Assembly: GCF_003334785.1 (NCBI RefSeq)
Contig: NZ_QOWV01000089.1
Origin: Escherichia coli
GTDB lineage: Bacteria > Pseudomonadota > Gammaproteobacteria > Enterobacterales > Enterobacteriaceae
Length of the DNA: 343 nt
Reading direction: 5' to 3' (one strand)
Under the pieces are notes generated by a model. That model searched no databases, was not told the DNA's origin, and saw nothing but the letters and a program-made list of their open reading frames with translations. How positions within the stretch are numbered: position 1 is the first letter of the stretch; the number at the start of each line of letters is the position of its first letter. The position numbers were made by a program, and so were the translations under genes. Positions 1-342 of the stretch are shown here, piece after piece.

Positions 1-120
1 CATGGCCCAGCCCACTGGTTTTCTTGCGAACAGGTCGAGAACAACGGCGAGGTACGCCCAGCGCTTACCCGTCCAGATATAGGTCACATCACCGCACCAC
101 ACCTGATTTGGTTCCGTTAC
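1..120 (-). other. Start of the integrase catalytic core (rve/DDE domain) of OrfB, including the first catalytic Asp codon at 88-90 (minus-strand GAT within WCGDVTY)
   Basis: The motif W-x-G-D-[IV]-T-Y followed by YLAVV[IL]D is the conserved N-terminal part of the retroviral-integrase-like DDE core in IS3-family transposases. The second Asp and the Glu of the triad would be encoded beyond position 1 and are not visible. Confidence 0.7.
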
Positions 121-342
121 GGCGAACTGTCGCTCAAGATGATTCGGGATAGCAACGTGCTCATGACCGCCACGCTTATACCGGTGAGTCGGCTGCTGGC
201 AACTGACCAGCCCCAGCTCTTTCATGAGTCTGCCAGCAAGCCAGTGCCCCATCTGGTAGCCTCTCCGGGTTGCCATTGTGGCGATGCTTCTTGCTCCGGC
301 AGAGCCGTGGCTGATGCCATGCAGTTCAAGTACCTGGCTGCG
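1..342 (-). CDS. IS3-family transposase OrfB (integrase/DDE catalytic subunit), internal fragment; partial at both ends, with neither start nor stop codon in the window
   Basis: Reverse-complement translation in the frame ending at position 1 gives 114 codons with no stop. The product carries the IS3-family OrfB hallmarks: the motif RLMKELGL followed by ...[36 protein letters not shown], which parallels the E. coli IS3 InsF segment [36 protein letters not shown] as I recall it. No database search was run; the call rests on recalled family sequences. Confidence 0.9.
193..342 (-). other. HTH-like region of OrfB that precedes the integrase core (...[23 protein letters not shown]...)
   Basis: Its position immediately N-terminal to the DDE core and the pattern aromatic/Gly - basic - hydrophobic - RLMxELGL match the HTH-like segment seen in IS3-family OrfB proteins. 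Boundaries are approximate and inferred from family architecture, not from a domain search. Confidence 0.5.

Follow-up and report, generated by a model that had tools for sequence, protein, structure and literature searches.

The question raised by this Escherichia coli window, the whole 343 nucleotide stretch of DNA that was analysed (58.3% G+C), is whether a long open frame lying exactly antisense to a transposase gene is itself a gene. The initial annotation had described plus-strand frame 1 as free of stop codons over 114 codons and as sharing its codon boundaries with the transposase on the opposite strand, and had considered a codon-usage artefact to be the most probable cause. Both descriptions are borne out. 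Retranslation of the frame gave a string identical to the 114 residues originally reported, and the shared boundaries are those of the transposase reading frame orfB (Table 1). The remaining plus frames of the window contain six and four stops; the minus frame that uses the identical codon boundaries is likewise open, with six and three stops in the other two minus frames. A codon check also bore out the statement that the transposase uses no TTA, CTA or TCA codon within the window, and it is for this reason that plus frame 1 contains no stop.

The minus-strand gene is the orfB of a transposase of the IS3 family, IS3 group, and carries the integrase-core (rve) DDE domain. By tblastn the window was aligned with orfB residues 61-174 at 98% identity, a segment that covers the HTH_21 region and the beginning of the rve domain. 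The orfB of an intact relative located on a Klebsiella plasmid (locus L013) matches rve (2e-31), rve_3 and HTH_21 in Pfam and scores 317.7 bits against the NCBIfam model NF033516 'IS3 family transposase' (cut-off 160). In this intact element orfA is followed by orfB in the -1 frame, which is the usual IS3 layout, and orfA (MKKRNFSAEF...) terminates within the frame of orfB, giving two overlapping frames. One copy of IS911 is labelled 'programmed frameshift' in RefSeq. The window itself is 96-99% identical to copies named ISEc52 in RefSeq and approximately 93% identical to IS911. Many E. coli strains carry an exact (100%) chromosomal match, among them ATCC 11775, Nissle 1917 and strains of O26 and O103, and 4082 of 5426 complete genomes contain a match to the window.

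The earlier identification of the opposite-strand gene as a transposase holds with respect to its family and reading frame, but the copy in the window is a dead pseudogene remnant that has been both frameshifted and truncated by IS30. It is annotated in RefSeq as 'IS3 family transposase, frameshifted; incomplete' with a missing N-terminus. The remnant lies on the downstream side of fecD-fecE and of a small hypothetical gene and abuts a copy of IS30, and the overlap of orfA and orfB is absent from it because the 5' part has been removed by IS30. In its truncation and frameshift it is unlike intact IS911 and ISEc52, and it resembles insO/IS911B of K-12 in sitting between fecE and IS30. In ATCC 11775 (locus L001) the remnant occupies positions 2600-3504 and the window positions 3001-3343; the frameshift lies near orfB codon 204/205 and the chromosomal site downstream of fecE is fixed. 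The gene between fecE and the remnant encodes a hypothetical protein of 85 amino acids (WP_000177060.1; L001 2260-2517, minus strand) and occupies the position of the yjhV pseudogene of K-12, and an ORF of 137 amino acids in the same frame (L001 2260-2673) extends into the end of the remnant.

At the syntenic locus of K-12 (L016 4126-6802) the insO/IS911B pseudogene is interrupted by IS30D and an IS600 fragment. This insO copy was considered as an exact match to the window and rejected, being only 93% identical. Such low identity at a syntenic position suggests that IS911 and ISEc52 variants may have replaced one another, or undergone gene conversion, at the fecE-side locus. A chromosomal E. 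coli copy annotated as ISEc52 (L003) carries IS911-type sequence over transposase codons ~113-135 (antisense ...IWLGHGELPFKVVRDSNMFMTTTF...), and the other variant around window positions 100-200 is common to the window and the ISEc52 copy of the Klebsiella plasmid. The mosaic nature of these copies points to probable recombination among co-resident IS variants.

Table 1. Features of the window, with positions counted from its first base.
Feature	Position	Strand	Basis or remark
Stop-free in-phase antisense frame, 114 codons, read as non-coding	1..342	+	Translation
orfB codons 61-174 of an IS3-family IS911/ISEc52-type element	1..342	-	Translation and tblastn
ORF of 68 aa from ATG 139-141, the sole canonical-start ORF in the window's copy	139..342	+	ATG is the reverse complement of His-128 CAT
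CAG in the window, TAG in IS911 and K-12 syntenic copies	322..324	+	Leu-67 CTG to CTA, synonymous
First base (T) of the TAA stop closing the antisense frame	343..343 (stop 343-345)	+	Reverse complement of Leu-60 TTA

When the antisense frame is followed beyond the window the whole stop-free stretch comes to 163 codons (L001 2854-3342). Its upstream bound is a TGA at window positions -149 to -147, and at the other end the TAA of Table 1 stands right outside the window, a position unfavourable to an antisense gene. The open run of the intact ISEc52-type element corresponds to sense codons 61-217 (157 codons) and is bounded by the TTA codons of Leu-218 and Leu-60. Here the frame contains an ATG-started ORF of 149 amino acids, with a counterpart of ~142 amino acids in IS911. 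The presence of such a gene-sized ORF in an intact element favours an alternative in which the antisense frame encodes a real overlapping IS protein, for example a modulator of transposition, of which the window would hold the C-terminal 114 codons. Against this alternative, in the window's own copy the ATG of the 149 residue ORF has been put out of frame by the frameshift of the pseudogene. Nor does either possible start have a Shine-Dalgarno-like sequence upstream, whether the ATG at position 139 (preceded by ACGGCGAACTGTCGCTCAAG) or the ATG of the longer ORF in intact ISEc52 (preceded by CTGCCTGCTCGTATA).

An open frame of this length is not in itself unusual. By base composition alone 114 open codons would be expected with a frequency of 2.6%, but this model is naive and a fair null has to be conditioned on the sense gene. 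An analytic estimate from the sense protein (10 Leu, 5 Ser) and the codon usage of 38 E. coli genes is 5.6%, and when the synonymous codons of orfB are permuted in the intact element itself the figure is 6.5% (P = 0.065). Among the 114-codon windows of the same 38 genes, all of them ordinary E. coli genes, the share without a stop is 6.1% in the in-phase antisense frame as against 0.1-1.3% in the four other alternative frames; the in-phase antisense frame runs open for 114 codons or more in 10 of the 38 and for 163 or more in four. The open length is thus within the expectation set by the amino-acid content and codon usage of the sense gene and, because the estimates conditioned on the sense gene agree at 5.6-6.5%, an open antisense frame of this kind is common and requires no special explanation. 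A run as long as the 157 codons observed in the intact element, or longer, is also not significant under the same synonymous permutation of orfB (P = 0.13), which argues against the overlapping protein. The initial annotation had referred to such frames as common in GC-biased genes. This part of its account is to be qualified, as G+C content is a moderate factor only (58% in the window compared with 51% in the 38 background genes).

Further evidence came from the pattern of substitution. Codon alignments of orfB brought together the window, the intact ISEc52 reference (L013) and, in addition to these two, ten copies or relatives. On the IS911/ISEc52 side these were one further ISEc52-type copy, three IS911 copies and the K-12 syntenic copy; the others were plasmid elements of pO157 type and from Enterobacter asburiae, E. 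coli IncHI1B, Klebsiella pneumoniae and Halomonas. Values of dN/dS were calculated over the codons of the window with intact ISEc52 as the reference. In the comparison with IS911, 2 differences fall on the first, 1 on the second and 21 on the third sense position, with a dN/dS of 0.02 in the sense frame and 1.84 in the antisense frame and amino-acid identities of 98% and 82%. The comparison with the E. asburiae element gives 3, 8 and 40 differences, dN/dS values of 0.05 (sense) and 3.77 (antisense) and identities of 92% and 63%. Overall the transposase values lie between 0.02 and 0.05 and the antisense values between 1.4 and 3.8. A similar picture is given by the window and the K-12 copy, where 21 of the 24 differences fall on sense third positions, and two of 114 residues are changed in the transposase as against 20 of 114 in the antisense translation. 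Elements with 92-98% identity in the transposase differ in 18-37% of the antisense residues, which, at an antisense dN/dS of this size, is difficult to reconcile with an overlapping protein.

A second coding constraint could also have been visible as elevated conservation of the synonymous sites of the transposase, a check that had been proposed with the initial annotation. No such elevation was found. Over the codons of the window, sense dS amounts to 0.35 and 0.85 as against 0.22 and 0.76 outside the open stretch, and within the open stretch it is 0.29-0.92 compared with 0.22-0.76 outside. Synonymous divergence is not lower within the open stretch than outside it, and no second constraint is visible on the synonymous sites of the transposase. 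Taken with the antisense dN/dS values, these data give no sign of purifying selection on an antisense product.

It had also been proposed that stops in the antisense frame of related IS copies, arising with no effect on the transposase, would speak against an antisense gene, and such stops are present. All three IS911 copies show the change at Leu-67, as does the K-12 syntenic copy; in IS911 this synonymous CTA shortens the antisense ORF. Ser-74 is encoded by TCA in two elements. At Ser-175 the E. asburiae, IncHI1B, K. pneumoniae and Halomonas elements have TCA in place of TCG, which places a TGA immediately upstream of the window, so that the antisense ORF is interrupted in these four relatives, from 85% nucleotide identity. 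The more distant relatives each contain between one and six antisense stops; in the Halomonas element there are seven stop-making codons, six of which lie within the stretch that is stop-free in ISEc52. All of the stops in relatives arise through synonymous leucine or serine codons, with the exception of one valine to leucine replacement at codon 200.

The possible starts are no better preserved than the frame. The triplet at window position 139 that reads ATG is GTA in one ISEc52-type copy and in the IS911 copies, GCG in the E. asburiae element, ATA in the IncHI1B element, CAG in the K. pneumoniae element and GTG in the pO157-type element, and this ATG is therefore not conserved among the relatives aligned. 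The start of the 149 residue ORF does remain ATG or GTG in elements down to ~85% nucleotide identity, a point in favour of an overlapping protein, but this is accounted for by the transposase. The ATG lies opposite the conserved His-209 codon (FHSDQG motif), of which it is the reverse complement, and across the relatives the opposing triplet is ATG, GTG or CTG, following the third base of that codon. With stops at codons 67, 74, 175 and others, and with starts lost, the antisense ORF is not kept intact in related elements.

Signals of expression and protein matches were also sought. Consensus scans of the remnant and of the intact element, covering both strands, detected no sigma-70-like promoter, and no promoter with a ribosome-binding site that could serve an antisense gene. 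The antisense translation had no Pfam match with E up to 0.001 (the sole hit being OrsD at E = 0.19) and none in NCBIfam with E up to 0.01. For the overlapping protein the lack of a Shine-Dalgarno sequence, promoter-like site or domain match in these scans is again unfavourable. When the 163 residue antisense translation was compared with 5.8 billion predicted proteins, 73 matches were obtained. That gene callers working on public data have predicted the antisense ORF, whole or in fragments, 73 times might be taken to support a protein, and some of the matches have been deposited at NCBI as 'hypothetical protein'. All 73, however, represent this one antisense frame in elements of the IS911 group; most by far are without a domain, and many lie on short contigs. 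The possibility that they represent an independent protein family was rejected on these grounds, and they are read as gene-caller artefacts. One of them, a 97 residue antisense form with an NCBI entry (P0028), occurs on 161 contigs. A functional name or Pfam assignment is attached to P0056 ('cytochrome c-type biogenesis protein CcmH/NrfF'), P0044 (PF13007) and P0041 (PF01278). P0041, P0044, P0056 and P0072, the few that bear a label of this kind, align over only 17-52% of the length of the query and are probably read-through chimeras with neighbouring sequence.

A different alternative is that the plus strand yields a functional non-coding antisense RNA that regulates the transposase, the open frame being incidental. 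Antisense RNA control is known in other IS families, for example through the RNA-OUT of IS10, and this precedent speaks for the proposal. A weak terminator-like hairpin is present on the plus strand at window positions 269-285 (L001 3269-3285; L013 1269-1285), consisting of GTTGCCATTGTGGCGAT followed by the T-rich GCTTCTTGCT; it is conserved between the remnant and intact ISEc52 and has just three G-C pairs. This one hairpin could be counted in favour of an antisense RNA, but the number of terminator-like sites is within the expectation from shuffled sequence (2 against 0.9 ± 1.1, and 1 against 1.4 ± 1.2). The absence of a promoter-like site on either strand of the element is unfavourable to an RNA too, and the remnant has no match in Rfam at E up to 1. 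Because third-position divergence is free across the region, no extra constraint at the nucleotide level is visible. As judged from titles and abstracts, none of the papers retrieved that name IS911 together with antisense concerns an antisense transcript or product of IS911. A regulatory RNA must be regarded as a highly improbable reading of this locus.

The open plus-strand frame is almost certainly a passive by-product of codon usage in the minus-strand transposase frame, one that nothing selects for or makes use of. The artefact that the initial annotation had favoured is supported by the stop right outside the window, by the stops in relatives, by the unreduced dS, by the lack of a Shine-Dalgarno-like sequence at either start and by a chance level of 5.6-6.5%. 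A stop in this frame can arise solely opposite a sense TTA or CTA (leucine) or TCA (serine), which are minor codons in E. coli. Because none of the 10 leucine and five serine codons of the orfB stretch is TTA, CTA or TCA, the antisense frame of the intact element is left open from Leu-218 to Leu-60. The apparent conservation of the antisense frame among close IS copies would then do no more than mirror strong purifying selection on the transposase together with the recent spread of the element. We infer that the antisense frame is not expressed.

This explanation is in agreement with work on other genes. Biased codon usage has been held largely to explain long antisense non-stop frames (Silke, 1997, Gene 194:143, as cited in PMC3454372), and codon bias was given as the cause of how ORF lengths in this frame are distributed globally (Mir et al., 2012; PMC3454372). 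Long antiparallel ORFs have also been found generally to be without negative selection (Moshensky and Alexeevski, 2019; bioRxiv 10.1101/724807). The frame described here resembles these 'frame -1' shadow ORFs, which are attributed to codon bias, in several respects. It shares its codon boundaries with the sense gene and is open where sense TTA, CTA and TCA are rare or absent; it is of the in-phase antisense type, which in E. coli genes is open more often than any other alternative frame (6.1% against 0.1-1.3%); and its translation shows no negative selection. It differs from the usual shadow ORF in that the sense gene is the transposase of a mobile element, here a pseudogene, instead of a highly expressed housekeeping gene, and otherwise in nothing of substance. 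The finding is an ordinary one, for which what is known of the genetic code and of codon usage already provides the explanation.

There are precedents in E. coli for antisense overlapping genes, and these speak in favour of the overlapping protein. The antisense genes of E. coli O157:H7 (for example laoB, PMC5810103; three more, PMC9927249) are ORFs of tens to ~150 codons embedded antisense to an annotated gene, supported by RNA-seq and ribosome profiling and, according to the abstracts, provided with the structural elements typical of genes. Mir et al. (PMC3454372) also argued that significance may attach to certain long ORFs of this frame lying opposite genes of weak expression. The ORF of the window is comparable with the O157:H7 genes in its size and position. 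It is unlike them in that no promoter-like site or Shine-Dalgarno sequence was found and in that its evolution argues against constraint. An overlapping IS protein is very unlikely. It is less likely still that intact ISEc52 and IS911 translate an antisense protein of 149 amino acids (~142 in IS911) with a young, lineage-restricted role such as the modulation of transposition, the window being a decayed copy, and the residual chance that the 149 residue ORF of intact copies is translated at all is very slight. Were the antisense ORF to be expressed, it would constitute a third product for one of the best-studied elements of the IS3 family, but the evidence argues against this.

For the annotation of insertion sequences the locus carries a caution, since of all alternative frames the in-phase antisense one is by far the likeliest to remain without a stop. 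Where an IS element has spread only recently such a frame also looks 'conserved', because all of the copies are nearly identical. At least 73 antisense 'hypothetical proteins' of this IS911 group, counted as clusters, have already entered public databases through gene callers, and recognition of the pattern prevents spurious annotation.
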